Positions 24,225 to 36,111 of a DNA stretch of 64,000 bases are shown piece after piece. Position 1 is the first letter of the stretch. Every line of letters begins with the position of its first letter. Origin of the DNA: Escherichia coli (GTDB taxonomy: Bacteria > Pseudomonadota > Gammaproteobacteria > Enterobacterales > Enterobacteriaceae); assembly GCF_003018255.1 (NCBI RefSeq), contig NZ_CP027440.1, one strand, 5' to 3'. The notes below the pieces were generated by a model, which was given only the letters and a program-made list of their open reading frames with translations, ran no database searches and had not been told where the DNA came from. The position numbers were made by a program, and so were the translations under genes.

Positions 24225-24686
<462 letters not shown>

Positions 24687-24710
24687 TTCGTTATTCAACG
24701 AGACGTAAAA

Positions 24711-24740
24711 ACGCCGACCAGTGGTCGGCGTTTTGCTTTT
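24711..24740 (+). terminator. Rho-independent terminator of the rpsF-priB-rpsR-rplI operon
   Basis: acgccgaccagtggtcggcgt hairpin followed by tttgctttt. Confidence 0.85.
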
Positions 24741-25046
24741 AAGTGATAAAAACCGCAGAAACAGACGTTCCCTCCATAAATCTCTTGCTATTCCTTTTAT
24801 AAAAAGTTCGCAGTACCCATACCTGGCCCCCAGCCTCGCCGCTGGTAGTTCGTGTCATGTTTTTTACGCGTAAAACACGACAAAAGCATCAATACAGCGA
24901 TCGTCTCACTTGTATGATAATAAAAACAATATGTTATATATGAATGTGCTGTTATTTTATTGTTTTTATATATAAAAAGATAAAATACCATCACTTTCGT
25001 AATCTTGAACGCTTTGCAGGTGCGTTCAATCCAATAAATGCTAATA

Positions 25047-25067
25047 TTATGGCTATCATAGCCATAA
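25047..25067. promoter_or_regulatory. Perfect 21-bp palindrome, candidate operator of the HTH/HipA-like module
   Basis: TTATGGCTAT-C-ATAGCCATAA (10-bp arms, 1-bp centre) ending 21 bp upstream of the HTH gene start codon. Confidence 0.45.
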
Positions 25068-25087
25068 AAAGATAAAATATTATCACT

Positions 25088-25579
25088 ATGGGTAAAAAAA
25101 CAGCACCGTTACTCCCTTATACGAATCAGATGCTTAGTGAATTTGGTGAGCGGCTGAAACTTGCTCGTTTACGACGCAGGCTTACCGCAAAGCAAGTTGC
25201 TGAACGTGCTGGGATGTCGCCAATAACATTGCGCTCTCTGGAGTCAGGAAGTGCAGGGGTCACGATAGGGGCATATTTGTCTGTGATGCAGGTTTTGGGC
25301 CTGGAAACGGATTTAAATAAGCTTGCAGCTGAAGACGACTTAGGGCGTCAGCTCCAGGATTCCCGTTTGATTAAAAAAAGAGGGCTTTCTCGTGCATCAA
25401 GTAAGAATGAAGAAGGTTCTCAGACAGCCTCATTGCAGATGAGGCACGAGAAAGAAGGTCATCTCACCACGGATTTAACAGCACTGGCAGAAGGCTCGAC
25501 GCCATCTATTACAGGAGAAACATCAACCTCTCTTGCAGCACTATTAAAACCGATAAAAAAACCGTTAAAAGGAAATTAA
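25088..25579 (+). CDS. XRE-family HTH protein, HipB-like putative antitoxin with long C-terminal extension
   Basis: 163 aa; HTH_XRE signature around [32 protein letters not shown]; Ser/Thr/Glu-rich low-complexity C-terminal ~75 aa; stop 25577-25579 is 2 bp before the kinase ATG. Confidence 0.75.
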
Positions 25580-25581
25580 TT

Positions 25582-26850
25582 ATGGCATTAATCGGAGTGT
25601 ATGCGGATTGGGAAGGCCTGGATGGTCCGGAGCGGATTGGTTATTTACACAGTCGCCGCACTCGGACGCGTGAGATATTTGAGTTTGAGTACGATAAAAA
25701 GGCGCTTGCAGATCCTTCACTTAATTTCATTCAGTTAGATCCTGAAATAATGTTGTATGAGGGAGCACACTACCCAATTCCTCCAAAGGATAAATTTGGT
25801 GCATTTAGTGATTCCTGCCCGGATCGTTGGGGGCGTATGCTAATGAAGCGTCGTTTTGAGAGGGATATTCGAGACGGGTTATGTGATAAAGACTCCCACC
25901 TTTATGAGTCTGATTATCTACTAGGTGTTCATGATCTTTATCGGGTTGGGGCCCTTCGATACAAACGTGAAGACGCTGGAGAGTTTCTTGATAATCGCAT
26001 TGATGTTGCAGCCCCACCATTTACCGAAATAGCGAGTCTGGAAAGGGCTAGCCGGGCAATTGAAGAAGATCCTGATAATAAAGAGCTAATGGGGCAAAAA
26101 TGGTTAAGAATGCTAATCGCTCCGGGGGGATCATTAGGGGGGGCACGTCCGAAAGCCAGTGTTGTTGATGAAGCTGGGCATCTCTACATCGCTAAATTTC
26201 CCAGTGTAAAAGATGAGTATGATGTTGGTGGATGGGAAATGGCCGTTAATGCACTTGCTGTTGGCTGTGGACTGAATGTTGCACCTGCTCAGGCGCATAA
26301 ATTTGCCAGCAATTACCATTGTTTTATGGTTCGTCGTTTTGACCGCACTAATGCGGGAAGGCGTCTGCATTTTGCTTCGGCTATGACACTAACCAGGCAT
26401 CAGGATGGTGAAGATGCCTCTACAGGTGTGAGTTATCTGGAATTAGCAGATGTTCTTATCAGGCATGGCGCGCAGACTAATACTGATCTTAAGGAACTCT
26501 GGTCCAGGATTGTTTTTAATATTCTTGTTTCTAATACCGATGATCATTTACGCAATCATGGATTTATCTTGATACCAGGAAAAGGTTGGCGGCTTTCTGA
26601 GGCATATGATTTGAATCCTGTGGTCAGGTCTGATGGTTTAAAACTCAATATTACGGAAAATGACAATGCACTTGATTTGGAATTAGCTAGAGAAGTTGCA
26701 GAGTATTTTCGACTTAGTTTGACGGAAGCTGATGACATTATTGCTAATTTTAGAGGGATTGTCAGTCAGTGGCGAATCATTGCCGAGCGTCTGAGATTAC
26801 CTGGTCGTGAGCAAGAGTTAATGGCAGAGGCATTCAGAGCGTCAATTTAG
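25582..26850 (+). CDS. HipA-family serine/threonine kinase (putative type II toxin)
   Basis: 422 aa; Gly-rich loop GGSLGGARPKAS, catalytic-loop motif NTDDHLRNHG and HipA_C-like C-terminus (DLNPVV...); aaggaa RBS upstream of ATG. Confidence 0.8.
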   Translation: MALIGVYADWEGLDGPERIGYLHSRRTRTREIFEFEYDKKALADPSLNFIQLDPEIMLYEGAHYPIPPKDKFGAFSDSCPDRWGRMLMKRRFERDIRDGLCDKDSHLYESDYLLGVHDLYRVGALRYKREDAGEFLDNRIDVAAPPFTEIASLERASRAIEEDPDNKELMGQKWLRMLIAPGGSLGGARPKASVVDEAGHLYIAKFPSVKDEYDVGGWEMAVNALAVGCGLNVAPAQAHKFASNYHCFMVRRFDRTNAGRRLHFASAMTLTRHQDGEDASTGVSYLELADVLIRHGAQTNTDLKELWSRIVFNILVSNTDDHLRNHGFILIPGKGWRLSEAYDLNPVVRSDGLKLNITENDNALDLELAREVAEYFRLSLTEADDIIANFRGIVSQWRIIAERLRLPGREQELMAEAFRASI

Positions 26851-26947
26851 AATAGTTATTTCGATATATTCGCTAAATCATAAATTTGCGAAGCAATGCC
26901 AGTAGATACTGAACGTTTTGGAAGAGACGTTTAATTTATGAGAAAAA

Positions 26948-26982
26948 TAGAAACGCTACAAAGCTAAATTATAGCGTTTCTA
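26948..26982. terminator. Bidirectional hairpin between the HipA-like gene and the convergent MFS gene
   Basis: tagaaacgct ... agcgtttcta inverted repeat (10-bp stem, ~15-nt loop) in an AT-rich context. Confidence 0.5.
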
Positions 26983-26992
26983 TGTAAAATAA

Positions 26993-28270
26993 TTAGCTTG
27001 TCGCTAACTGTACTTGTGGTTCTTCGTCTTTAACTTTGATAAGCATCCACAGCGCAATGGCGCCAATAATGTCAAAGAAAGCCAGGGCAATAAAGAACGG
27101 CGCGAAGCCAATAATGTGAACGAATGCCCCGATAAACAGGTTGAAAATCAACTGACCGCTCCATGCACAGGCTCCTGCCATACCCACAGCGGTAGCTACT
27201 TCGTCTTTTTTGAATAGGTCACCGCCCAGAGTTGCTGCAACAGTAGAAAGACATTGATGCGAGAATGCGCCAATGCTAATCAGTAATACGGCGATGTAGG
27301 GATTTTCGACAATACTCACCAGACCAATCGTCATCATAATGACGGCTGCAATAGTGAAGGTAATTCTTCGTGAGTTAATTAAACTCACGCCGCGATCGTG
27401 GAAGAACTTCGCGACAAAACCACTGGCTAAACAGCCGAGATCGCCCAGCAGGAAAGGTAGCCAGACGAACATGGCAATTTCTTTCAGGCTAAAATGCAGC
27501 GTTTCGACGAAGAAAATCGGTACCCAGAAGTTAATGGTTCCCCATGCCGGGTCAGCGAGAAAACGCGCGATGCCAATCCCCCAGAAATTACGTTGGCTGA
27601 GGATATGCTTGATTGACGTTTTTTCTTTCTTATCTGTTTTAAGATGCTGTTCTTGCCCAGACTCAATATAGTGGCGCTCTTCATCAGAAAGGCGTTTAGC
27701 ATCTTTTGGATCTTTATAACAAAAGAACCAAAATAAAGCCGCGAGTAAAGCAAGGCTACCTGAGACAATAAACGCAAATTGCCAGCTATGAAACATAATG
27801 CACCAGGCAATCAACGGTGGAGCAAGCATCGCGCCGAGTGAGGTGCCCATATTGAAAACACCTGTCGCCACGCCACGCTCTTTTGCCGGGAACCATGTTG
27901 ATGCGGTTTTTACACCCGCAGGAATTGCCGATGCTTCGCTGAAACCCATCAGGGCGCGCATAAATGCCAGACCTGACCATGTTCCTGTCAAGGCATGCCC
28001 CATTGTCGCCAGGCCCCAGATTGCGGCACATATCGCAAAACTTAACTTCAGACCCACGGTATCAATAAAGAAGCCCATTATCGGTTGCCCCAATGTATAG
28101 GCCAACTGGAATGCACTGACAATCCATGAATATTGTTCTTTGGTTATTCCGGTTGTCTCCATAATCGTTGGAGCCGCAATACCTAACGCCGTTCTGTCCA
28201 GATAATTGATTACAGTGATAAAGCATACGAGGGCAATCATATGCCATCGATAATTCTTTATTTTATTCAT
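26993..28270 (-). CDS. MFS transporter, anion:cation symporter family (ExuT/hexuronate-transporter-like)
   Basis: 425 aa, 12-TM-like hydrophobicity; MNKIKNYRWHMIALVCF...WFPAKERG...KEIAMFVWLP resembles ExuT/DgoT-type sugar-acid transporters as recalled from memory. Confidence 0.8.
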   Translation of the reverse strand: MNKIKNYRWHMIALVCFITVINYLDRTALGIAAPTIMETTGITKEQYSWIVSAFQLAYTLGQPIMGFFIDTVGLKLSFAICAAIWGLATMGHALTGTWSGLAFMRALMGFSEASAIPAGVKTASTWFPAKERGVATGVFNMGTSLGAMLAPPLIAWCIMFHSWQFAFIVSGSLALLAALFWFFCYKDPKDAKRLSDEERHYIESGQEQHLKTDKKEKTSIKHILSQRNFWGIGIARFLADPAWGTINFWVPIFFVETLHFSLKEIAMFVWLPFLLGDLGCLASGFVAKFFHDRGVSLINSRRITFTIAAVIMMTIGLVSIVENPYIAVLLISIGAFSHQCLSTVAATLGGDLFKKDEVATAVGMAGACAWSGQLIFNLFIGAFVHIIGFAPFFIALAFFDIIGAIALWMLIKVKDEEPQVQLATS

Positions 28271-28362
28271 TTTTAAACCTTTTAATTATATTAATAAACC
28301 CTGGTTGTTGGTATTTCCATGTAATAGGCAATAAAAATCAGGTACAGAGGAAATATTGAAAA

Positions 28363-30435
28363 TTATTGTGTGTAAATGTCTCCCTTTAAAAAATCTGGCC
28401 AGTTTTTTTCAAAGTAAATACCGTTAATACACGGTTGCATACGTAAAGACTTTACTTCGGTAATAAAAGAACCTTGCGAATATTGAATTGTTAATTTGTG
28501 ATTTTTGTCTTCAGCGAGTTCAGAGCGAAAACGCCATTCTTCTTTTGCGCCGCGACGAGTTTGTGGTAGGCATTTGCCTTGTGGATCAATAACCATACGC
28601 GCCCCACGGCTACCACCACCAGCATCAATATAATGCGTTAATTGTGTTAATACCGCGGCAGAAGTCAGCGCCATATGCCGCCACATAAACAGCTCGGCAA
28701 CTTCACCCACATGTTTGATTGCCAATCCATGCCGTTGGACAAATTCGTTCAATAGCAGGGCATCACGAGTGGCACGTCGGACTTTATCGGCATGGCAAAT
28801 AAATCCCGCATAGTCAGACATTCGTGCCTGAATTTTTTCTCTCACAACCGACAACGGCATCCCGGTCCCGTTATCGTGCGCCTGAGTAATGATCTCTCTT
28901 ATAGAAGCCAGTGCCGGAGCTACCAGCTGTGCTATATCTCCATCAATATTACGTTTTTGCGTGCAACCAATAAAACGTGCCAGACGAACAGCAAAAACCT
29001 GCCCGGCATTCAATGCCGCACCACCAGGGCGAGTGACGCCGTGTGTGCCAGCAACTTCCCCCACGGCGAAACAGCCGGGCAGGGAGGTTTGTCCCCAGAT
29101 ATCCACTTCAATGCCGCCATTCATATGCTGATTATTCATGGCAAACTGCAAAGGCTGTGTGGTGAGATCGTAACCGTGCATCTTATACAGCGAGATAGAC
29201 AGCGGATTCATTCGTTGCAGCCGTTCGATGGGCGATGGTGCCAGAGCGTCGTTATTTTCCAGATACGCGCGAACGTCGTCGTCCAGTCGATCTAATGAGA
29301 AGGGCAGGTCACCCGGCACCGCTTCAGGATTGCGATTGAAATCCATAAATACCTGACGCCCTGATTGCTGCTCTTGCGCTACAGCCATATCTAACAAGCT
29401 GGAGCCAAACTCCATTACCCGAGTGGCGTGGAACGGCCACTGATAGCCTTTACGAAAAATGTTTGAAGCCAGCTCCTGGGTGGTGCGATAGTAATCCGCG
29501 AGGAAGTTATACTCGTTGCCCCCGGCATCCACGGAATAGATATGTGGGATCACCTGCACATAGGTGCCGGACAAATTCCACGGAAACGTGCTGCGCGGTG
29601 TGCCTATACCAAACTGGCTTTCAGTCAAATTGGTTAGCGTCAGACCTTCTTCCAGCGCCAGCCCCAGCGAGCCGAAACATTTGTGTGGGTACACACTGTC
29701 GCGATAAAGCTCGCCAGGCCCTCCTGTTGCCAGTACCACATTGGGCGCAATCACAATTGCCAGCCCCCATGGGTTATGGACGCGATGACCGGTCGCGAGG
29801 ATAGCCCCCGCCACGCGGTCTTCGCCGTTTTCGTCACGCTGATGCAGCAGTTTAATCACTGTTGCACTGGTCAACATTGGGATAGCAAGACGCTGTACTT
29901 CTTCCAGCAGCACTTTCACCATTAACCTTGAGGTACGTGGCCCACACGAGGTTGCACGCCCGGCTTCGTCATGGTCGGTTTGATAACGAAGAATCGCACC
30001 ATAGCGATCTTCCGGTAATTCCAGACCAAGATATTGCAACCCGCCAAGAGTGTGCAGAGAACCTACCGCTTCGACATAAGCAGTGTCGTGATCCATCGCC
30101 CCACCACTCGCCAGTGCCTCTGCCAGTTTGGTGAAGTTGTCGCCGTTGCCCGCGGTAGCGGCGGTAAACAGCGTCTGTTTATCGGAACCGGAGCAGGCCG
30201 ATGTTCCCATGTATAACCCGGCGGTGGCGATTAACACATTTTGCTGGCGGCGTTTAAGTTCCACAGCTGCACGCAGCCCGGCTGCACCACTGCCGACTAC
30301 CAGGGCATCTGTTTGCCAAAGTGGGTAATCAACACCGTCTACCGTGACAACCCATGCGGGTTCTGCCTGTGCAAAACCCTTTGGGAAAGTAACGTGCGTC
30401 AGCGCATCAAGGATGGTGTCATCAAGCTGACTCAT
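28363..30435 (-). CDS. FAD-dependent oxidoreductase (succinate dehydrogenase/fumarate reductase flavoprotein-like superfamily)
   Basis: 690 aa; N-terminal Rossmann dinucleotide motif VVGSGAAGLRAAVEL; start ATG overlaps the stop of the upstream CoA-transferase gene (ATGA). Confidence 0.7.
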   Translation of the reverse strand: MSQLDDTILDALTHVTFPKGFAQAEPAWVVTVDGVDYPLWQTDALVVGSGAAGLRAAVELKRRQQNVLIATAGLYMGTSACSGSDKQTLFTAATAGNGDNFTKLAEALASGGAMDHDTAYVEAVGSLHTLGGLQYLGLELPEDRYGAILRYQTDHDEAGRATSCGPRTSRLMVKVLLEEVQRLAIPMLTSATVIKLLHQRDENGEDRVAGAILATGHRVHNPWGLAIVIAPNVVLATGGPGELYRDSVYPHKCFGSLGLALEEGLTLTNLTESQFGIGTPRSTFPWNLSGTYVQVIPHIYSVDAGGNEYNFLADYYRTTQELASNIFRKGYQWPFHATRVMEFGSSLLDMAVAQEQQSGRQVFMDFNRNPEAVPGDLPFSLDRLDDDVRAYLENNDALAPSPIERLQRMNPLSISLYKMHGYDLTTQPLQFAMNNQHMNGGIEVDIWGQTSLPGCFAVGEVAGTHGVTRPGGAALNAGQVFAVRLARFIGCTQKRNIDGDIAQLVAPALASIREIITQAHDNGTGMPLSVVREKIQARMSDYAGFICHADKVRRATRDALLLNEFVQRHGLAIKHVGEVAELFMWRHMALTSAAVLTQLTHYIDAGGGSRGARMVIDPQGKCLPQTRRGAKEEWRFRSELAEDKNHKLTIQYSQGSFITEVKSLRMQPCINGIYFEKNWPDFLKGDIYTQ

Positions 30436-31973
30436 GCATCCTCCATCGGCGTAAACAGGCTACTTTCCATCAGGCGTGGGTGCTTGATAATTGGACGGAA
30501 AGCCATATACGGCAGAATGTCGCGCTCAATCTCCACACCCGGCGCGATTTCAATTAATTCAACGCCTTCTGCCGTTAACTGGAATACTGCGCGTTCAGTG
30601 ATATACAGCACTTCCTGACCACTTTGCTGTGCGTAGGCGGCGCTAAAAGTGATTTTTTCCACTTGGGTAACCAGTTTAGGGATTTGACCTGACTGGGCGA
30701 TATGCAGGCCATCAGGCGTTACATCAATCTTGCTGCCTTTGGCGTCAAACGTACCGCAGAACACCACTTTACGGGCGTTTTGCGCAATTTCGAGGAAGCC
30801 GCCGGGGCCAATGAGATTGCCATTGAGATGGGATACGTTGACGTTACCGTACCGATCCATCTCTCCCATGCCGAGGAAGGTGATATCGATACCGCCGCCA
30901 CTGTAGAATTCGAATTGATCGAGTGATGGAATAATGGCGTCGGCGTTACGGGCGCAGCCGAACAGAGCATCATCCAGCATCATGCCGTTATGTACGCCTT
31001 GCTCGACGCTCATCCATAAACTTTGATAAGGCACGCCTTCGCGCAGCGCAACCCCAGGAATACCGCCCGGAATACCAAAGCCAAAGTTGGTTGAAGCGCC
31101 TGCCACCAGTTCCCGTGCTGCCCGACGGGCAATCAGGCGACGCACCGGATGACTAACCAGTTCAATAGCGTCGTTAGAACTTAGACGGCGATGTTGACCG
31201 CTGATCGTCAGGTCGTAACCGCCAAGATAGGTTTGCGGTTGTTCGCGGTGTTCAACGATACCATCGACCAGAATCCCCGGTAGCTTGACCTTGCGAGGTT
31301 CAATGGCGCCAGCTTCCAGTACATCGCGCACCTGTACAAACACTTTGCCGCCACTGTTGTGTGCTGCCAGCGCCATCGAATAGCTATCCATATCAATCGC
31401 TTCTTCTTCGAGGCTAACGTTGCCACGCGGATCGGCATAGGTGCCGCGCAAAATCGCGTAGTCCACTTTGAAAGGGCGATAGCGGAGTTTGGTTTCACCG
31501 TCGATTTCAATCAGTTCTACCAGGTCGTCGGTCGTGCATTCATTCGACTTACCGCCACCATTGCGTGGATCAACAAACGATCCCAGCCCAACGTGGGTAA
31601 AAAGCCCCGGACGTCCGGCACCGATCTCCCGCAGCAGTGCCTGAATTACGCCACCAGGGAAACAGTAGGCTTCAATAGCATTGCTTTTCACCAGTTCCTG
31701 CATCTTGGGCGACCAGGTAAAATGTCCGGCAATAATGCGTTTGAGCATTTCGGCGTGAGCAAAACGGTTAGTGCCTTTGCTGTCGCGATCGCCAATACCC
31801 AGCGAGTGGATTAATGTCAGATCGCGCGGGTGTCCGGTTTGCAGGAAACGCGCTTCAATGGCGGCCATAATATGGTCAGCTTCCACCATACCGCCGCCGT
31901 TACCGCTAATGGCAATGGTTGCGCCGTCCTGAATTTGCGCCGCCAGTGTCTCGGCGGTTGATAACTTACGCAT
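30432..31973 (-). CDS. Family I CoA-transferase, fused alpha/beta subunits (YdiF-like acyl-CoA:acetate CoA-transferase)
   Basis: 513 aa; GSFVDPRNGGGK and YITERAVFQLTAEGVELIEIAPGVEIERDIL closely parallel YdiF motifs as recalled from memory. Confidence 0.75.
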   Translation of the reverse strand: MRKLSTAETLAAQIQDGATIAISGNGGGMVEADHIMAAIEARFLQTGHPRDLTLIHSLGIGDRDSKGTNRFAHAEMLKRIIAGHFTWSPKMQELVKSNAIEAYCFPGGVIQALLREIGAGRPGLFTHVGLGSFVDPRNGGGKSNECTTDDLVELIEIDGETKLRYRPFKVDYAILRGTYADPRGNVSLEEEAIDMDSYSMALAAHNSGGKVFVQVRDVLEAGAIEPRKVKLPGILVDGIVEHREQPQTYLGGYDLTISGQHRRLSSNDAIELVSHPVRRLIARRAARELVAGASTNFGFGIPGGIPGVALREGVPYQSLWMSVEQGVHNGMMLDDALFGCARNADAIIPSLDQFEFYSGGGIDITFLGMGEMDRYGNVNVSHLNGNLIGPGGFLEIAQNARKVVFCGTFDAKGSKIDVTPDGLHIAQSGQIPKLVTQVEKITFSAAYAQQSGQEVLYITERAVFQLTAEGVELIEIAPGVEIERDILPYMAFRPIIKHPRLMESSLFTPMEDA

Positions 31974-31982
31974 ACAATTTCC

Positions 31983-32759
31983 TTATTGATTGTGGAAGCT
32001 CACGCCGGCTTTTTCGGCAAATGCGTGCGTCGCCTGCTGGCAATCCTGAGTGGCGGACATTAATCCAGCCAGTAACTGGTGGGAGTAATCGGCGTGTTTA
32101 TTTTCCAGCGCCAGAATCAGTTGCTTAATATGTGCCAGTGCCACCGGACCACATTTTTCCAGCTGCGCTAACTGGTTCGCCATCCAGCTTTCCACCTGTT
32201 CTTTTTCTACCACTTCATCAATTAAATTCGCCACCTGGGCTTCCTGCGCCGTCAGGCGTTTACCCAGCATCAGCATCTGGCGACCGACCACCGGGCCAAC
32301 CTGATTAAGCACGCGTTCAATGCCCATCCAGCCAGGCACCATGCCGAGCATCACTTCCGGGTTAGAGAATTTCGCGCCGGGGCGAGCGATACGAATATCG
32401 CAGCACAAGGCAAGTTCAATACCGCCACCGATGGTATGACCGTTGAGATTCGCAACGGTTAATTGGGGTAAGTTGCGCAGGCGATTAAAAACCTCGTTAC
32501 CGCGTTTAATCCATTTTCTGCCCATATCTAATGGCGAATAGGCCGACCACGATTTAATATCGCCGCCCGCACAAAAGAATTTATCGCCGGTTGCCGTTAA
32601 TTCGACTAATCGTAATGTGGTGTCGTTTTCAATTTCATTTAAATAATGGTCGAGAGATTCGATCATTTCTTCATTAATAGCATGACATTTATCTTCACGG
32701 TTCAATGTCAGGCGGCAAGAAGCCGCCGCTCTGCTGAACAGAACGGGTTGGTCACTCAT
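31983..32759 (-). CDS. Enoyl-CoA hydratase/isomerase (crotonase-fold) protein
   Basis: 258 aa; crotonase-like oxyanion-hole region (FFCAGGDIK ... GHTIGGGIELALCCDIRIA). Confidence 0.75.
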   Translation of the reverse strand: MSDQPVLFSRAAASCRLTLNREDKCHAINEEMIESLDHYLNEIENDTTLRLVELTATGDKFFCAGGDIKSWSAYSPLDMGRKWIKRGNEVFNRLRNLPQLTVANLNGHTIGGGIELALCCDIRIARPGAKFSNPEVMLGMVPGWMGIERVLNQVGPVVGRQMLMLGKRLTAQEAQVANLIDEVVEKEQVESWMANQLAQLEKCGPVALAHIKQLILALENKHADYSHQLLAGLMSATQDCQQATHAFAEKAGVSFHNQ

Positions 32760-32768
32760 GATTATTCC

Positions 32769-33611
32769 TTAGCAATAATGTGCGATGCGATCGACGCTAA
32801 TATCCAGCGTGCTGTTAATATCTTTCTGCCACCAGTACGGTGAGAATATTTCCAGTTCAATAGCGCCATTAAATCCGGCGTTTTCAACCAGCCGACGAAT
32901 TGACGGAATATTGATGACACCATCTCCCGGCATTCCACGGTCATTGACCAGATCGGTGGTCGGCACTAACCAGTCGGAAACATGAAACGCGAGGATGCGT
33001 TTTCCGGCACGCAGGATCTGACTGGCGAGATCCGGGTCCCACCAGACATGGTAGACATCTACCGCCACGCCGAGGCCAAATTCGCCATCGGGATCGAGTT
33101 CATCACACCAGTCCAGCGCCTGACGTAACGTGCACAGACAAGAACGATCGGCAGCAGTCATCGGGTGCAGTGGCTCCAGTGCAATTGGCACGCCGACCTC
33201 TTTCGAATGTGGCAGCAACTGGCGAATCCCTTGTTTCACCTGTTCCCGTGCTTCGTACAGATCTTTTGTTCCCATTGGCAGACCGCCAACCACCTGCATG
33301 TAACAGGCGGCATTTAGCACAGCGGCATCGTCCAGCGCCCGGCGGTTATCATCAATCGCCAGCTTGCGCTCCGCCAGCGTCGGTGCGGTGTAGTAGGTGC
33401 TACGGCACAAACCGGAAACGTTTATGTTACTGGCAGCAAGCTGGCGGGCGATTTGCTGGAGATCTTCACCCTGCAACTCCCTGCGCCAGGGGGCAATGGC
33501 GCCAATACCGCGTGCGGCGCAGGCATCAATAATGGCGGGTAGCGGCGTTTTATAGCCCAGTGTCGCGGTATTGATACTGAATAAATCCGGGCGTTGTAAC
33601 AGATCTCTCAT
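32769..33611 (-). CDS. Xylose-isomerase-like TIM-barrel protein (sugar phosphate isomerase/epimerase or dehydratase family)
   Basis: 280 aa; AP-endonuclease-2/xylose-isomerase-like TIM-barrel pattern, same fold family as UlaE/IolE; function inferred from family only. Confidence 0.6.
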   Translation of the reverse strand: MRDLLQRPDLFSINTATLGYKTPLPAIIDACAARGIGAIAPWRRELQGEDLQQIARQLAASNINVSGLCRSTYYTAPTLAERKLAIDDNRRALDDAAVLNAACYMQVVGGLPMGTKDLYEAREQVKQGIRQLLPHSKEVGVPIALEPLHPMTAADRSCLCTLRQALDWCDELDPDGEFGLGVAVDVYHVWWDPDLASQILRAGKRILAFHVSDWLVPTTDLVNDRGMPGDGVINIPSIRRLVENAGFNGAIELEIFSPYWWQKDINSTLDISVDRIAHYC

Positions 33612-33620
33612 GATTCAGCC

Positions 33621-34412
33621 TCAGAAGCGCGGCATACTTAAGCCGCCGTCGATGGCGACCGCCTGACCACAGGTGTAAATCAGTTTACCTTCCGCCATCG
33701 CGCGGACAGTGGAAGCAATATCAGCCGGATAACCCCAACGTCCCCACGGCACCAGACCTTTGGCAATCAGTTCGTCGTAATAGGCCGTTGCCGGAATAGT
33801 CATATCGGTTTTGATGAGACCAGGACGCACTTCATATACGCCAATTTGTTCATTACAAAGGCGAGCAGCAAATAGACGAGCAGCGGCAGAGACGGCAGTT
33901 TTGGCAATGGTATATTCGCCGCGATTCATCGCCAGCATGATGGCGTTGATGGAACTGACGAAAATAATCGAGCGGTGCGGCAGTTCTGCTTCCGGTTTCG
34001 GCTGTGCCAGTAAGCGCTTACTGAATGCCTGAGCGAGGAAGAACGGTGCGCGGGTGTTAATGGCAATATTTTGGTCGAAGCTGTCTGGTTCGAGGTCGAG
34101 AAGATCACCGCGTTTTTTCACTGAAATGCCTGCGTTGTTGAGCAGGCAGTCCAGACGTCCCCACTGGTTTTGCGCTGCGTCGAGCATCTCTTCATGCAGG
34201 GAGAGATCGCCCACATCAGCAGGGAAGCAAATCACTTCCACGCCTTCCGCCAGACATTCTTGTTGTGTGGCATGTAATTTTTCTACGCTATCCGCATCCG
34301 GACGATCATTAATCAGCAGATTAAATCCGCCACGCGCAAGCTCCAGCGCACAGCCCTTTCCAATACCACGAGCGGCTCCGGTAATCACGGCAACAGGAAG
34401 AGTGGATTTCAT
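33621..34412 (-). CDS. Short-chain dehydrogenase/reductase (SDR)
   Basis: 263 aa; cofactor motif TGAARGIGKG and catalytic YxxxK (YTIAKTAV); first gene of the minus-strand operon. Confidence 0.8.
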   Translation of the reverse strand: MKSTLPVAVITGAARGIGKGCALELARGGFNLLINDRPDADSVEKLHATQQECLAEGVEVICFPADVGDLSLHEEMLDAAQNQWGRLDCLLNNAGISVKKRGDLLDLEPDSFDQNIAINTRAPFFLAQAFSKRLLAQPKPEAELPHRSIIFVSSINAIMLAMNRGEYTIAKTAVSAAARLFAARLCNEQIGVYEVRPGLIKTDMTIPATAYYDELIAKGLVPWGRWGYPADIASTVRAMAEGKLIYTCGQAVAIDGGLSMPRF

Positions 34413-34480
34413 ACAATAGCTCTCTTTTTTTGAATTTTGTTTCCTTAGTGATGATTAGCTTGCGACTGGAGGGTAAAAAG

Positions 34481-34502
34481 ATCAACCATCTAGTTGGTTG
34501 AT
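34481..34502. promoter_or_regulatory. Near-perfect 22-bp palindrome in the divergent SDR/TetR intergenic region (candidate TetR operator)
   Basis: ATCAACCATCTAGTTGGTTGAT, 20 of 22 positions self-complementary, 8-bp perfect arms. Confidence 0.4.
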
Positions 34503-34624
34503 ATGCGATGGCGATCACAGGACATTTGATAACCTGATGAAAGTACAAGTTTTTGCCCTTTTTTCTGAAGCTGAAATCAAATCAGGTTATGATAGTCACC
34601 ACGAAGAGGTCGTGGGGAAGCGTT

Positions 34625-35272
34625 ATGTATCTTGATACCAGCAACGTACAGAGCCTGAAAGAAAAGCTGCTGTTATGCGCGGTTAATGAATTTGCCGAAT
34701 ATGGTTACGAAGGGGCCAGAGTCGATAATATCGTCAAGGCCGCGGGGTGCAGTAAACAGACGGTTTATCACCACTTTGGTAATAAAGAAAATTTATTTAT
34801 CGAAGTACTGGAATATACCTGGAACGATATTCGACAAAAAGAAAAGGCCCTTGATTTCTCAGATCTTCCGCCACAGAAAGCCATTGAGAAAATAATCGAT
34901 TTTACATGGGATTATTATATTTCTAATCCCTGGTTTTTAAAAATTGTGCATAGTGAAAATCAAAGTAAGGGTGTGCATTATGCAAAGTCACAGCGTCTTT
35001 TAGAAATTAACCATGCGCACTTGCAGTTAATGGAATCCTTATTGGATGAAGGGAAGAAAAACAATATTTTTAAGCCAGATATCGACCCATTGCAGGTGAA
35101 TATTAATATTGCTGCGCTTGGGGGATATTATTTGATCAACCAGCATACGCTTGGTCTGGTTTATCACATCAGTATGGTTTCACCCCAGGCACTGGAAGCC
35201 AGACGTAAGGTCATCAAAGAGACAATCCTTAGCTGGCTTTTGGTTGACCCTTCATCTACCGCGCGCGAATAA
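34625..35272 (+). CDS. TetR/AcrR-family transcriptional regulator
   Basis: ORF track 34553..35272 begins at a TTG; ATG at 34625 with ggggaag RBS is more plausible (215 aa); TetR_N HTH ([27 protein letters not shown]). Confidence 0.75.
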
Positions 35273-35894
35273 AACTGCCATCCGGCTGGCGGGTAAACAG
35301 GACCTGTTGATTATTCCCCGTATCAATGGTTAAGCCCGTCACCACGCCGCTGGCGTTCTGGCGGATTTTCACCATCTGCCCGTTTTGCAAATTACTCAGT
35401 GGCTTATCCGCGCCTTCTACCTGCGCCATGGCATAGACATCGGTAGCGGGCAGTCCGTGGTCGCGGAACAGCTGCGCCATCGTTTTACCGGGTTCGACAC
35501 GATAGGAGCGCCATTGATTATCAATTCCGCTATCTGGCTGGAATGGTTGCGTATGGGTGGTTTGCGGCTGCTCTTCTGGCTGGCCTTCCTGTATTGGTTC
35601 TGGAGCGACCGGAGCCACCTGATCAGGATCATTTTGTGGCGTGACTAATTGCGCCCGCAGCTGTTCTTCTGTCGGTGGTTGTGATTGCGACTGAATATCT
35701 AACTGCGCTTCACGCGTCACCACCGGCGCGTTGGGCGTATCATCAGATGGAAGCAGAAATCCGACTACCAATACAATGGCGGCAATAATGATCCCCCGAC
35801 GATGCATCGGCGGCAGCGGGTCCATGAAGCGAAAATTGTCCGGCGCGTGCCAGACTTTCTCCAGGGTTGGTTTTAGTTCAAAGCGCCCGGGCAT
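35256..35894 (-). CDS. ytfB: Cell-division-associated OapA/LysM-domain protein YtfB
   Basis: ORF track 35256..35930; start at [21 protein letters not shown], 212 aa; Pro/Gln-rich linker and C-terminal OapA-like domain. Confidence 0.85.
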
Positions 35895-36111
35895 GGTTTC
35901 CTCCTGCTCCGCGTCTTGTTCCTCAATCATAGCCTATGAATAAGCTAACGCTATGATGTCCGTGGTAAACCCGCCTTTATTATATTCATACGGGATATTG
36001 CTATTGTTTCTTTTTCCCCGGGATTTGTCATCATTCCCGCGACAAAGTTTTACCCAAAGAAGTGTGGCTGATATGCTGCCCGCTACTTTATACCCTAAGA
36101 AAGGAAATACG

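Follow-up and report, generated by a model that had tools for sequence, protein, structure and literature searches.

The closest described systems convert organic acids with enzymes of several kinds. The Ashwell hexuronate system consists of a transporter (ExuT or TRAP), UxaC, UxuB, UxuA, KdgK and Eda, and the hexuronate pathway is already complete in Escherichia coli. The cai system acts on a cationic substrate with a family-III CoA-transferase, an acyl-CoA-dehydrogenase-type reductase with the Fix ETF, and a BCCT antiporter. The bai operon oxidizes, dehydrates and reduces a carboxylic acid by means of an MFS transporter, an SDR, a CoA-transferase, a dehydratase and flavoproteins; BaiCD and BaiH are OYE Fe-S flavoproteins, BaiE is a SnoaL-like dehydratase and BaiF belongs to the family-III transferases. 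In Anaerostipes, an OxcT-EcdH-AcaD operon converts 3-oxopropionate to propionate in inositol fermentation, and the cyclitol/deoxy-glucuronate route employs AP_endonuc_2 (IolE) enzymes (PMC8355322). The deoxyribonate pathway of Klebsiella michiganensis processes a sugar acid via acyl-CoA intermediates and has an MFS carrier; its cluster encodes a CoA synthetase, a beta-hydroxyacyl-CoA dehydrogenase, a thiolase, a lactonase and a glycerate kinase (Price et al., 2019, PMC6365646).

Here we analyze a stretch of 64,000 nucleotides from an E. coli genome (contig NZ_CP027440.1; the window). Positions 26993-34412 of its minus strand are an intact predicted operon of six genes, with a predicted TetR repressor alongside (Table 1). 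We put at about even chances the explanation that this operon is repressed by TetR, has been exchanged horizontally and serves the uptake and conversion of one hydroxylated carboxylic acid, most probably a D-glucuronate-like one. The route is probably previously undescribed. Homology and literature searches, in which a match to a defined pathway would have spoken against a preliminary description of this locus made from sequence alone, gave no such match, and we found no function for these genes in any database, structure or paper.

Locus organization

The six co-directional open reading frames of the preliminary description are all intact. Their tight spacing was borne out, with three gaps of 9 nt (9, 9 and 9), a 4-nt overlap of the CoA-transferase and flavoprotein genes, and 92 nt before the MFS gene. 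A stable hairpin was looked for in this 92-nt gap and none was found. A candidate terminator hairpin lies directly 3' of the MFS stop codon.

Table 1. Features of the predicted operon and its surroundings (window coordinates)
Feature	Position	Strand	Details
Terminator-like hairpin	26947..26983	-	15-bp stem then T-run; consensus pattern only
MFS transporter, anion:cation symporter (ACS, D-galactonate/hexuronate) family, last gene	26993..28270	-	425 aa
Stand-alone FAD flavoprotein, NadB/SdhA/FrdA structural class	28363..30435	-	690 aa; Pfam FAD_binding_2, 2e-25
Fused family-I CoA-transferase, YdiF type	30432..31973	-	513 aa; PDB 2ahu (YdiF), E 3e-114, full length
Crotonase-type enoyl-CoA hydratase/dehydratase, short-chain type	31983..32759	-	258 aa; family match E 4e-44
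Xylose-isomerase-like TIM barrel (Pfam AP_endonuc_2)	32769..33611	-	280 aa; PDB 3qc0/3ju2, E 2e-85
Classical short-chain dehydrogenase (SDR), operon gene 1	33621..34412	-	263 aa; NCBIfam PRK12745, 417 bits
Candidate TetR operator	34481..34502		palindrome ATCAACCA-TCTAGT-TGGTTGAT
TetR/AcrR-family regulator, divergent	34625..35272	+	215 aa from ATG at 34625

The mechanical ORF of the TetR gene begins at 34553, and the 3' ends of this gene and ytfB overlap by 17 nt. The best NCBIfam match of the regulator is the acyl-CoA-responsive FadR of Bacillus, under the cut-off (E = 2e-12); regulators in orthologous clusters combine TetR_N and TetR_C_29. The candidate operator sits inside the 212-bp divergent promoter region. 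Its palindrome occurs once in the window, where 0 matches are expected by chance, and is kept in E. coli loci. Related AACCA...GTTGA motifs are present in the regulator-side intergenic regions of the homologous loci L014, L016, L092, L097, L093, L009 and L006.

Encoded enzymes

The family calls made earlier stand (PRK12745, YdiF 2ahu, FAD_binding_2, TIGR00893/DgoT and 3qc0/3ju2 matches), and the gene set holds no thiolase or acyl-CoA ligase, as had been noted. All catalytic and metal residues are kept in the enzymes of this window, as judged by residue comparison.

The SDR is probably NAD(H)-dependent, as suggested by its motifs: TGAARGIG (11), Asp36, NNAG (92), Ser153/154 and Tyr167-x3-Lys171. 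Its second-best NCBIfam match is glucose 1-dehydrogenase (141 bits), and its nearest PDB entries, 4da9 and 4one, have generic molecule names only. In most contexts examined an SDR gene is adjacent to that of the TIM barrel or one gene off; in the gut contigs L097 and L098 the two are three genes apart.

The TIM barrel is a candidate metal-dependent isomerase, epimerase or dehydratase, with Glu146, Asp185, His210 and Glu254 invariant in 12 homologs. SMc04130 (3QC0/3JU2) and 7VPF (E = 1e-61) are direct homologs; their PDB names are ‘sugar isomerase’, ‘uncharacterized protein’ and ‘Xylose isomerase’, and we found no paper describing them. The only NCBIfam matches, both weak, are IolO epimerase and hydroxypyruvate isomerase.

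Among PDB entries, the crotonase is most similar to 5zai (a 3-hydroxypropionyl-CoA dehydratase, 2e-40) and 5z7r (a short-chain enoyl-CoA hydratase). The CoA-transferase is annotated as acyl-CoA:acetate/3-ketoacid CoA-transferase and scores 381 bits against NCBIfam FadX, below the cut-off. Its Glu324 aligns to Glu333 of YdiF, which we take to be the catalytic residue. With this residue in place and both crotonase glutamates kept (Glu115 in GGGIELAL and Glu135 in NPEVMLG), the proposal of genuine CoA-ester chemistry holds.

The flavoprotein bears an extra C-terminal beta domain, and its final ~69 residues are part of a swapped transporter cassette. It keeps a His/Arg pair (His437/Arg469) that is presumably the carboxylate-binding pair of FrdA/NadB; such a pair would bind a free carboxylate and fits a thioester poorly. 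The catalytic residues that fumarate reductases have in their capping domain are not evidently conserved. One homolog (P0152) carries a fused OYE domain, as NADH:2-enoate reductases (for fumarate, acrylate or cinnamate) do, and a homolog in Phycisphaerae has a neighbor that is a flavoprotein of OYE/GltD type.

Distribution and relatives

The operon is an accessory island at a site between rplI and ytfB. Of 5426 complete E. coli genomes, 3114 have the enzyme block, and ~43% of E. coli genomes, K-12 among them, lack the island; in K-12/JM109 the island is deleted and only a 5'-truncated TetR copy is left. This MFS gene, 100% identical to the copy in the probiotic E. coli Nissle 1917, is found in 1685 of the 5426, and other genomes with the enzyme block have a TRAP transporter in its place. 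The island has a mosaic structure: its transporter end has been swapped between alleles, and GC drops from 0.51–0.56 in the enzyme block to about 0.42–0.47 in the MFS gene. Some E. coli and Shigella have broken copies, in which the TIM barrel is shortened to 207 aa and the CoA-transferase is split. Purifying selection acts on each of the five enzyme genes, with dN/dS of about 0.01–0.17 against the TRAP allele (0.013 for the SDR gene, 0.09 for the crotonase gene).

The genome-neighborhood check that had been suggested found the gene order recurring in other bacterial classes, which indicates that the arrangement is not due to chance. A Rhodocyclaceae genome has a TetR gene and MaoC-SDR-TIM-ECH-CoAT-FAD-DctQM, in Pseudovibrio SDR-TIM-ECH-CoAT lie together and the flavoprotein gene is 6 kb off (CoA-transferase ortholog at 64% identity), and human-gut contigs have TIM-ECH-CoAT-TetR-SDR-FAD-SDR-DctPQM, so the five-enzyme set is conserved across classes. 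Homologous clusters also occur on a contig labeled Succinatimonas and on human-gut metagenome contigs. Other clusters hold a TetR regulator, an SDR, a TIM barrel, a flavoprotein and a transporter without CoA-transferase or hydratase (L005–L007, L014 of Brenneria and L016–L018); the Brenneria cluster has the housekeeping genes aspA/dcuA on its flanks. In the two relatives L093 and L096 the flavoprotein is replaced by an acyl-CoA dehydrogenase, which accompanies the SDR, the TIM barrel and a CoA-transferase. Distant flavoprotein homologs adjoin KDG kinase, Eda aldolase, Gfo/Idh/MocA and GMC sugar oxidoreductases, and sister clusters contain IolG-like Gfo/Idh/MocA genes.

Transporters and substrate

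Import of an acidic substrate, as originally proposed, agrees with the ACS family of the MFS protein (314 bits against TIGR00893, cut-off 395; E = 2e-40 against DgoT, 6e9n) and with its allelic alternative in sister alleles, a DctPQM TRAP system of carboxylate type. The best PDB relatives of the TRAP binding protein include 4n15, 4n91 and 4mhf, which are hexuronate binders (PMC7660916). Its residues Arg146, Arg166, Asn206, Asp233, Asn31/Gln32 and Glu72 match published glucuronate contacts, as mapped through numbering offsets from the paper and not on a structure. Its closest non-operon relatives (57% and 54% identity) are in UxaC-UxuB-UxuA-KdgK-Eda glucuronate clusters, and the Vibrio cholerae glucuronate cluster also holds a beta-glucuronidase-type GH2 gene. 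This kinship and the contact residues suggest that the substrate is probably D-glucuronate-like (a hexuronate or close derivative), an argument drawn from the TRAP allele, with the MFS protein of this window assigned at family level only. The KDG kinase and Eda genes beside more distant flavoprotein homologs agree with a substrate of this class. A substrate once thought not nameable from sequence is thereby narrowed. Plain glucuronate is unlikely because E. coli can already metabolize hexuronates. A point against the glucuronate reading is that relatives use other carriers, e.g. a PcaK-like aromatic-acid symporter in Brenneria.

Proposed pathway and alternatives

In the explanation we prefer, the MFS protein (TRAP in sister alleles) would import the acid, and the SDR, TIM barrel and flavoprotein would form a core acting on the free acid. 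The SDR, of NAD type, would oxidize a secondary alcohol to a ketone, which the metal-dependent TIM barrel would use to isomerize, epimerize or beta-eliminate. The NadB/SdhA-like flavoprotein would carry out C-alpha/C-beta oxidoreduction beside the carboxylate held by His437/Arg469; contigs apparently from gut anaerobes and the OYE-domain fusions elsewhere favor 2-enoate reduction. In this scheme, what the TIM barrel does, how the steps are ordered and which way the flavin reaction runs are all inferred. The CoA-transferase and crotonase look like an added module, given the core clusters without CoA genes and the His/Arg pair. Their role would be to supply general metabolism with CoA esters of a short-chain acid (a product or fragment of 3-hydroxyacyl/enoyl type), probably with acetyl-CoA as CoA donor. 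TetR would leave its candidate operator once substrate or an intermediate is present.

The preliminary description had instead proposed import, CoA activation and then thioester steps, in parallel with cai and YdiF-type pathways. The parallel survives in that the CoA-ester enzymes are real; the linear order, with hydration or dehydration, SDR, flavoprotein redox and TIM barrel steps all on the CoA ester (in effect beta-oxidation without thiolase), seems unlikely to us. It conflicts with the self-contained relatives that have no CoA gene and with the presumed carboxylate-binding pair of the flavoprotein and its NadB/SdhA-like class. We know of no AP_endonuc_2 enzyme acting on thioesters, and the CoA-transferase and crotonase resemble short-chain C3–C6 enzymes, not those of C6 polyhydroxy acids. 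Still, both of these genes are intact and tightly packed within the operon, one overlapping the flavoprotein gene, and the best, if weak, match of TetR is an acyl-CoA sensor. The gene pairing in L093 and L096 implies that thioester intermediates exist among these clusters, and replacement of the flavoprotein by acyl-CoA dehydrogenase shows a flavin step on a thioester in some lineages, which weakens the case for free-acid action of the core.

A reductive dehydroxylation serving as electron sink is conceivable, if doubtful. The SDR would oxidize a uronate or a cyclitol carboxylate (such as shikimate or quinate), the TIM barrel, the crotonase (on a CoA ester) or both would dehydrate it, and the fumarate-reductase-like flavoprotein would reduce the resulting 2-enoate, with the product excreted for redox balance in the anaerobic gut; the logic would resemble bile-acid 7-dehydroxylation or shikimate-to-cyclohexanecarboxylate conversion. 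The Succinatimonas-labeled and gut contigs fit, as we assume their organisms to be strict anaerobes, in which an SdhA-type enzyme would be expected to work as a reductase. So do the OYE fusion and the Phycisphaerae neighbor, the IolG-like genes, and the dehydratase that is the top structural match of the crotonase. The Anaerostipes CoA-transferase/hydratase operon likewise makes propionate from an inositol C3 fragment in a reductive branch (PMC8355322). However, the E. coli operon encodes no electron-donor partner, the fumarate reductase capping-domain residues are not evidently kept, quinate/shikimate genes are absent nearby, and KDG kinase and Eda beside distant homologs point to assimilation rather than excretion. 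That two unrelated modules merely lie side by side, or that the island is non-functional and decaying, we consider very improbable: the mosaic structure, the many genomes without the island and the broken copies would suit it, but the same five genes stay together in Rhodocyclaceae, Pseudovibrio and gut contigs, dN/dS is low and the catalytic residues in the window are intact.

Comparison with known systems

Like cai and YdiF/ydi, the operon combines CoA transfer, a crotonase-type (de)hydratase and flavin redox, in that order, without a ligase-plus-thiolase cycle, and its CoA-transferase is genuinely homologous to YdiF (E = 3e-114). Unlike cai, it has a family-I transferase, an SdhA/NadB-like flavoprotein, an anionic substrate and an additional SDR and TIM barrel, and in its relatives the core is present without CoA genes. 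The parts list of bai (7-alpha-dehydroxylation) is alike in kind, but the protein families differ and the E. coli operon gives no sign of a steroid substrate, so the likeness is analogy only. The Anaerostipes branch is similar by enzyme kind, with a propionate/3-oxoacid-type CoA-transferase adjoining an enoyl-CoA hydratase and a short acid fragment; the window lacks its iolBCDJ and acyl-CoA dehydrogenase/Etf, the window comes from a facultative proteobacterium, and the operon implies import of an acid rather than inositol. The deoxyribonate pathway likewise belongs to an enterobacterium, takes a sugar acid through acyl-CoA intermediates and has a broadly similar MFS carrier. We rejected it as a match because the operon has none of the enzymes listed above for it and that cluster has neither TIM barrel nor SdhA-like flavoprotein.

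The Ashwell system differs in its enzymes, as the operon has SDR, TIM barrel, flavoprotein, CoA-transferase and crotonase in place of Uxa/Uxu enzymes, and in regulation, which is of TetR type in the operon and of GntR/FCD type in the compared glucuronate clusters. The transporter types match, and the binding protein of the TRAP allele is 54–57% identical to its counterparts in the glucuronate clusters of Vibrio and Aeromonas and keeps the residues that contact glucuronate.

Operon organization

All six reading frames of the preliminary description lie on the minus strand at the positions it gave, and none is broken (Table). Its predicted family assignments stand as well, on profile and structure matches and sequence motifs. 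In order of transcription, the genes are separated by gaps of 9, 9 and 9 nt, a 4-nt overlap and a 92-nt gap before the MFS gene. The sequence of this last gap is rich in A and T, and its predicted folding is not more stable than that of shuffled controls (z = +1.2). Rfam models matched no riboswitch or sRNA in 24500-36000 at E <= 0.1.

Table. Features of the operon and its flanks in window coordinates
Feature	Coordinates	Strand	Description
SDR	33621-34412	-	263 aa, intact
TIM barrel	32769-33611	-	280 aa, intact
Enoyl-CoA hydratase	31983-32759	-	258 aa, intact
CoA-transferase	30432-31973	-	513 aa, intact
Flavoprotein	28363-30435	-	690 aa, intact
MFS	26993-28270	-	425 aa, intact
TetR-family gene	34625-35272	+	divergent from SDR gene
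Stem + T-run	26947-26983		15-bp stem, directly after MFS stop codon

The 212-bp region between the SDR and TetR genes contains a perfect palindrome, ATCAACCA-N6-TGGTTGAT, at 34481-34502, which occurs once in the window. Relatives of this E. coli palindrome (TCAACCA-N6-TGGTTGA) with the form AACCA...GTTGA adjoin the TetR genes of homologous clusters. They are found in the intergenic regions on the regulator side of comparison loci L014 (Brenneria), L016, L092, L097, L093, L009 and L006; the taxa are Brenneria, Escherichia sp. ESNIH1, a Rhodocyclaceae genome, Marinobacterium and gut contigs. This recurrence suggests one orthologous TetR regulon with a conserved operator. The hairpin at 34481-34502 was at first flagged as terminator-like; we reread it as a candidate operator because it sits in the divergent promoter region and has related motifs in other taxa.

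Two features of the flanks are recorded here as side observations. The 3' ends of the TetR gene and of ytfB, which converges on it, overlap by 17 nt (35256-35272). Between rplI and the MFS end of the operon, genes for an HTH antitoxin-like protein (163 aa) and a HipA-family toxin (422 aa) occupy 25088-26850 on the plus strand, with GC of about 0.44. The pair is present in only some MFS-type alleles, and yjfZ occupies that spot in others.

Enzyme and transporter families

The CoA-transferase is a single chain with both CoA_trans halves. It matches YdiF (PDB 2ahu) at E 3e-114, residues 8-508 on 19-518, and both NCBIfam halves, pcaI and pcaJ, also match. Its Glu324 (SVEQG) aligns to YdiF Glu333 (TVETG), which we take to be catalytic, forming the thioester between enzyme and CoA. 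The hydratase has Glu115 in GGGIELAL and Glu135 in NPEVMLG, presumably the equivalents of the catalytic Glu144 and Glu164 of rat enoyl-CoA hydratase, and the oxyanion-hole glycine motif CAGGD at 63. Its closest matches are short-chain enzymes: the 3-hydroxypropionyl-CoA dehydratase 5zai (2e-40) and a clostridial crotonase.

The SDR scores 417 bits against PRK12745 and has the classical motifs TGAARGIG (11), NNAG (92), Ser153/154, Tyr167 and Lys171. Asp36, after beta-2, suggests use of NAD(H). The database label ‘3-ketoacyl-ACP reductase’, which comes from PRK12745, is a provisional cluster name, and the operon context argues against a FabG role.

The TIM barrel is near 3QC0/3JU2 (SMc04130; E 2e-85) and 7VPF (1e-61), structures that are named only generically. 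Glu146, Asp185, His210 and Glu254 are unchanged across 12 homologs and form a Glu-Asp-His-Glu divalent-metal site; the homologs are annotated with Pfam PF01261 (AP_endonuc_2). The protein is distant kin of IolI, IolO, hydroxypyruvate isomerase and ketose epimerases. It reaches the curated cut-off of none of the named AP_endonuc_2 enzymes (IolE, IolI, IolO, hydroxypyruvate isomerase, ketose 3-epimerase). IolO gives 28 bits (cut-off 300), hydroxypyruvate isomerase Hyi 25 bits (cut-off 353) and IolI (1i60) an E of only 2e-5.

The flavoprotein has an FAD-binding domain, a capping domain and a C-terminal helical domain, as in succinate dehydrogenase, fumarate reductase and L-aspartate oxidase. Its His437 (QHMNGG) and Arg469 (HGVTR) align with the carboxylate His/Arg motifs of NadB and FrdA and are unchanged in 15 homologs. 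We assume that these motifs correspond to NadB His351/Arg386 and FrdA His355/Arg390, the carboxylate-binding pair on the flavin domain. The capping-domain His and catalytic Arg, which we take to be His232/Arg287 in FrdA and His244/Arg290 in NadB, were not found in the alignment: QFH(PT) is replaced by ESQFG, and the RGEG-like motif has no counterpart. All NCBIfam equivalog cut-offs are far from reached (the top model, TfrA, scores 125 against 718). Because neither the capping residues nor the cut-offs fit, we exclude the protein from the true fumarate reductases and aspartate oxidases. No ORF for an iron-sulfur partner subunit or membrane anchor lies in the operon or its flanks.

Relatives of the flavoprotein form 412 clusters (50% identity, E <= 1e-30). 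The Klebsiella oxytoca group, Salmonella serovars and Citrobacter have close homologs (77-79% identical). Remoter ones (36-55% identical) are found in sugar gene contexts: in Rhodobacteraceae they adjoin genes for a sugar ABC transporter, for GMC and Gfo/Idh/MocA oxidoreductases and for a KDG-kinase-like protein, and in Phycisphaerae genes for an SDR, an Eda-like aldolase and a KDG kinase, beside an OYE/GltD flavoprotein. One homolog (P0152, locus L008, 9001-12255) is a 1084-aa fusion to an OYE (Oxidored_FMN) domain, with AP_endonuc_2 and SDR genes on either side. Such a fusion is the architecture of NADH:2-enoate reductases.

The MFS protein scores 314 bits against TIGR00893 (cut-off 395) and matches DgoT at E 2e-40. 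It is likely a member of the ACS family (ExuT/DgoT/GudP, the galactonate/hexuronate group), an assignment at family level only.

Distribution and transporter exchange in E. coli

The window, at about 98% identity to E. coli, is Escherichia DNA, and the operon lies between rplI and ytfB. The block of five enzyme genes is present in 3114 of 5426 complete E. coli genomes and absent from the remaining ~43%. The MFS gene of the window is found in 1685 of the 5426, and DctPQM TRAP genes hold its position in many other E. coli. Nissle 1917 carries a 100% identical MFS gene; it therefore has the transporter at minimum, and very probably all of the operon. K-12-type genomes, JM109 for example, retain only yjfZ and a 5'-truncated TetR gene. 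The JM109 gene, annotated as a partial TetR/AcrR regulator (L003, 3324-3725) and probably ytfA, is a 3' remnant of the operon's regulator; its survival indicates that the K-12 lineage lost the operon by deletion. Broken copies occur in some E. coli and Shigella. Two such contigs (L094 and L095, E. coli/Shigella type) carry a decayed TRAP-type operon, with the TIM barrel cut to 207 aa and the CoA-transferase split into ORFs of 151 aa and 339 aa.

The MFS end of the operon differs in composition and ancestry. Its GC is ~0.42-0.47, against 0.51-0.56 elsewhere in the operon, and synonymous divergence between the MFS and TRAP alleles climbs towards it from 0.08-0.13 to 0.27-0.34. The last ~69 flavoprotein residues are 52% identical between the two alleles, against 95-100% for most of the remainder, and the C-terminus in the window is of the E. 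albertii / E. marmotae type. The transporter was therefore swapped by recombination, with a breakpoint within the flavoprotein gene. The lower-GC cassette (28363-28570 plus 26993-28362) takes in the 3'-terminal ~69 flavoprotein codons, the MFS gene and the 92-nt spacer between them. Among the E. coli matches listed, the enzyme block is at most ~97.8% identical, and the adjoining MFS gene is 100% identical to that of Nissle 1917, so the window haplotype is a recombinant mosaic.

Values of dN/dS between the alleles are 0.013 (SDR), 0.056 (TIM barrel), 0.093 (hydratase), 0.043 (CoA-transferase) and 0.17 (flavoprotein). By this comparison of coding sequences, the five enzyme genes are kept by selection.

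Conservation in other bacteria

Genome-neighbourhood comparison bears out that the six-gene mix is a real unit: the cluster recurs in Rhodocyclaceae, Pseudovibrio flavus and human-gut contigs. A Rhodocyclaceae genome has TetR divided from MaoC-SDR-TIM-ECH-CoAT-FAD-DctQM, with DctP close by (ECH, hydratase; CoAT, CoA-transferase; FAD, flavoprotein). P. flavus keeps the order SDR-TIM-ECH-CoAT (54, 54, 40 and 64% identical), with the flavoprotein (56%) 6 kb off. Human-gut metagenome contigs have TIM-ECH-CoAT-TetR-SDR-FAD-SDR-DctPQM.

Other clusters have no CoA gene: TetR-SDR-FAD-TIM-TRAP in loci L005-L007, TetR-SDR-TIM-FAD-MFS in Brenneria, and TetR-SDR-Gfo/Idh/MocA-TIM-MFS-FAD in Escherichia sp. 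ESNIH1, Pseudescherichia and Mangrovibacter. In two further relatives, the SDR and TIM barrel are paired with an acyl-CoA dehydrogenase that replaces the flavoprotein; one of the two encodes a CoA-transferase and a DUF993 protein as well. All TIM-homolog contexts examined have an SDR and a flavin dehydrogenase (FAD_binding_2 or acyl-CoA dehydrogenase) in the cluster.

Substrate class

A clue to the substrate comes from the TRAP-type allele. The top PDB matches of its binding protein (E 1e-72 to 1e-59) include 4N15, 4N91 and 4MHF, which bind D-glucuronate or galacturonate and have published contact residues (PMC7660916). By numbering offsets rather than structure, Arg146, Arg166, Asn206, Asp233, Asn31/Gln32 and Glu72 match these contacts. 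Relatives outside the operon, in Vibrio cholerae (57% identical) and Aeromonas veronii (54%), sit in textbook glucuronate clusters that combine UxaC, UxuB, UxuA, KdgK and Eda with a GntR regulator; a beta-glucuronidase-type GH2 gene is additionally part of the V. cholerae cluster. Operon-linked binding proteins, the Rhodocyclaceae one included, form a separate clade with 76-100% identity.

Together with the putative ACS-family carrier of the window, this comparison points to a D-glucuronate-like acid. Glucuronate itself is a less likely substrate than one of its derivatives or isomers, since the Uxa/Uxu route is already present in E. coli. Ring analogues (shikimate, quinate) are possible candidates, as some relatives use PcaK-like carriers. 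Housekeeping genes flank the clusters of Brenneria and Escherichia sp. ESNIH1, and no quinate or shikimate genes are found there.

Proposed mechanism and alternatives

We rate the operon as of a repressor-controlled, acid-catabolic kind and propose a six-step mechanism, to which as a whole we give an even chance. The acid would be imported, and the SDR would oxidize a secondary alcohol to a ketone. Next to that ketone, the TIM barrel would catalyze isomerization, epimerization or beta-elimination. The flavoprotein would carry out C-alpha/C-beta redox on the free carboxylate. A short acid product would then be converted to CoA esters by the YdiF-type transferase, with acetyl-CoA as donor, and the short-chain crotonase. 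The operon would be de-repressed via TetR.

The main rival is a reductive dehydroxylation or electron-sink pathway, which we consider unlikely on balance. Flavoprotein homologs in clusters apparently from gut anaerobes and in OYE fusions speak for it, and these favour the 2-enoate reductase direction for the flavoprotein. The Anaerostipes OxcT-EcdH-AcaD operon, in which a C3 fragment of inositol breakdown is reduced to propionate (PMC8355322), is a known partial analogue. The preliminary description had instead read the operon as a linear pathway of import, CoA activation and later steps on the thioester. The unit has turned out to be modular: SDR/TIM/flavoprotein clusters exist without any CoA gene, and an all-thioester pathway now looks improbable. 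That the modules are unrelated or the operon is decaying seems very remote to us; decayed copies are found in some genomes, and the gene mix recurs across distant taxa.

A more specific version of our proposal is a novel route for glucuronate-like acids, and we offer it tentatively. The SdhA/NadB-like flavoprotein would act at C-alpha/C-beta of the sugar acid itself, while the propionate-CoA-transferase-type transferase and crotonase would process a C3-C4 fragment, perhaps as a sink for electrons under anaerobic conditions. Candidate substrates are a modified or epimeric hexuronate (4-O-methyl-glucuronate, L-iduronate, an unsaturated or deoxy-uronate) or one of the ring analogues. Candidate hosts are E. 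coli, the Klebsiella oxytoca group, some Salmonella, Succinivibrionaceae-like gut contigs and environmental Proteobacteria. If true, this route would give first functions to three families that are widespread and so far uncharacterized: the 3QC0/7VPF TIM barrels, this flavoprotein family and PRK12745 SDRs.

Significance

A conserved, selected metabolic operon is carried by over half of complete E. coli genomes, and its deletion from K-12 may explain the lack of study. Homologous clusters are known from contigs of human-gut metagenomes and from enterobacteria associated with plants or wood, so use of host- or diet-derived sugar acids, or reductive disposal, may depend on it. If the operon governs sugar-acid use, it would be relevant to gut colonization, to how E. 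coli lineages divide niches and to probiotic engineering. Beyond that, it is a tractable way into three protein families with no known reaction, for which structures or numerous members exist.

Comparison with known systems

Homology and literature checks matched no pathway that is already defined. Four of the proteins (TIM barrel, flavoprotein, CoA-transferase and MFS) lack a specific model in NCBIfam (June 2026). No function assignment was found in the curated models, solved-structure annotations, database names and literature searched, where names of cluster members are all generic. The literature searched contained no mention of this operon, and a published Salmonella Weltevreden transcriptome gave no information bearing on it. 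The deoxyribonate cluster of Klebsiella michiganensis has a CoA synthetase, a beta-hydroxyacyl-CoA dehydrogenase, a thiolase and a glycerate kinase (Price et al., PMC6365646). We rejected this identity because the gene set differs.

The parallel with carnitine metabolism drawn in the preliminary description does not extend to gene families. The cai operon encodes the family-III CoA-transferase CaiB, the acyl-CoA-dehydrogenase-like CaiA and the BCCT antiporter CaiT, whereas the transferase here is of family I, the flavoprotein is of the FAD_binding_2 type and the carrier is an MFS protein. The protein families of the operon are familiar; their combination and reaction sequence are undescribed.
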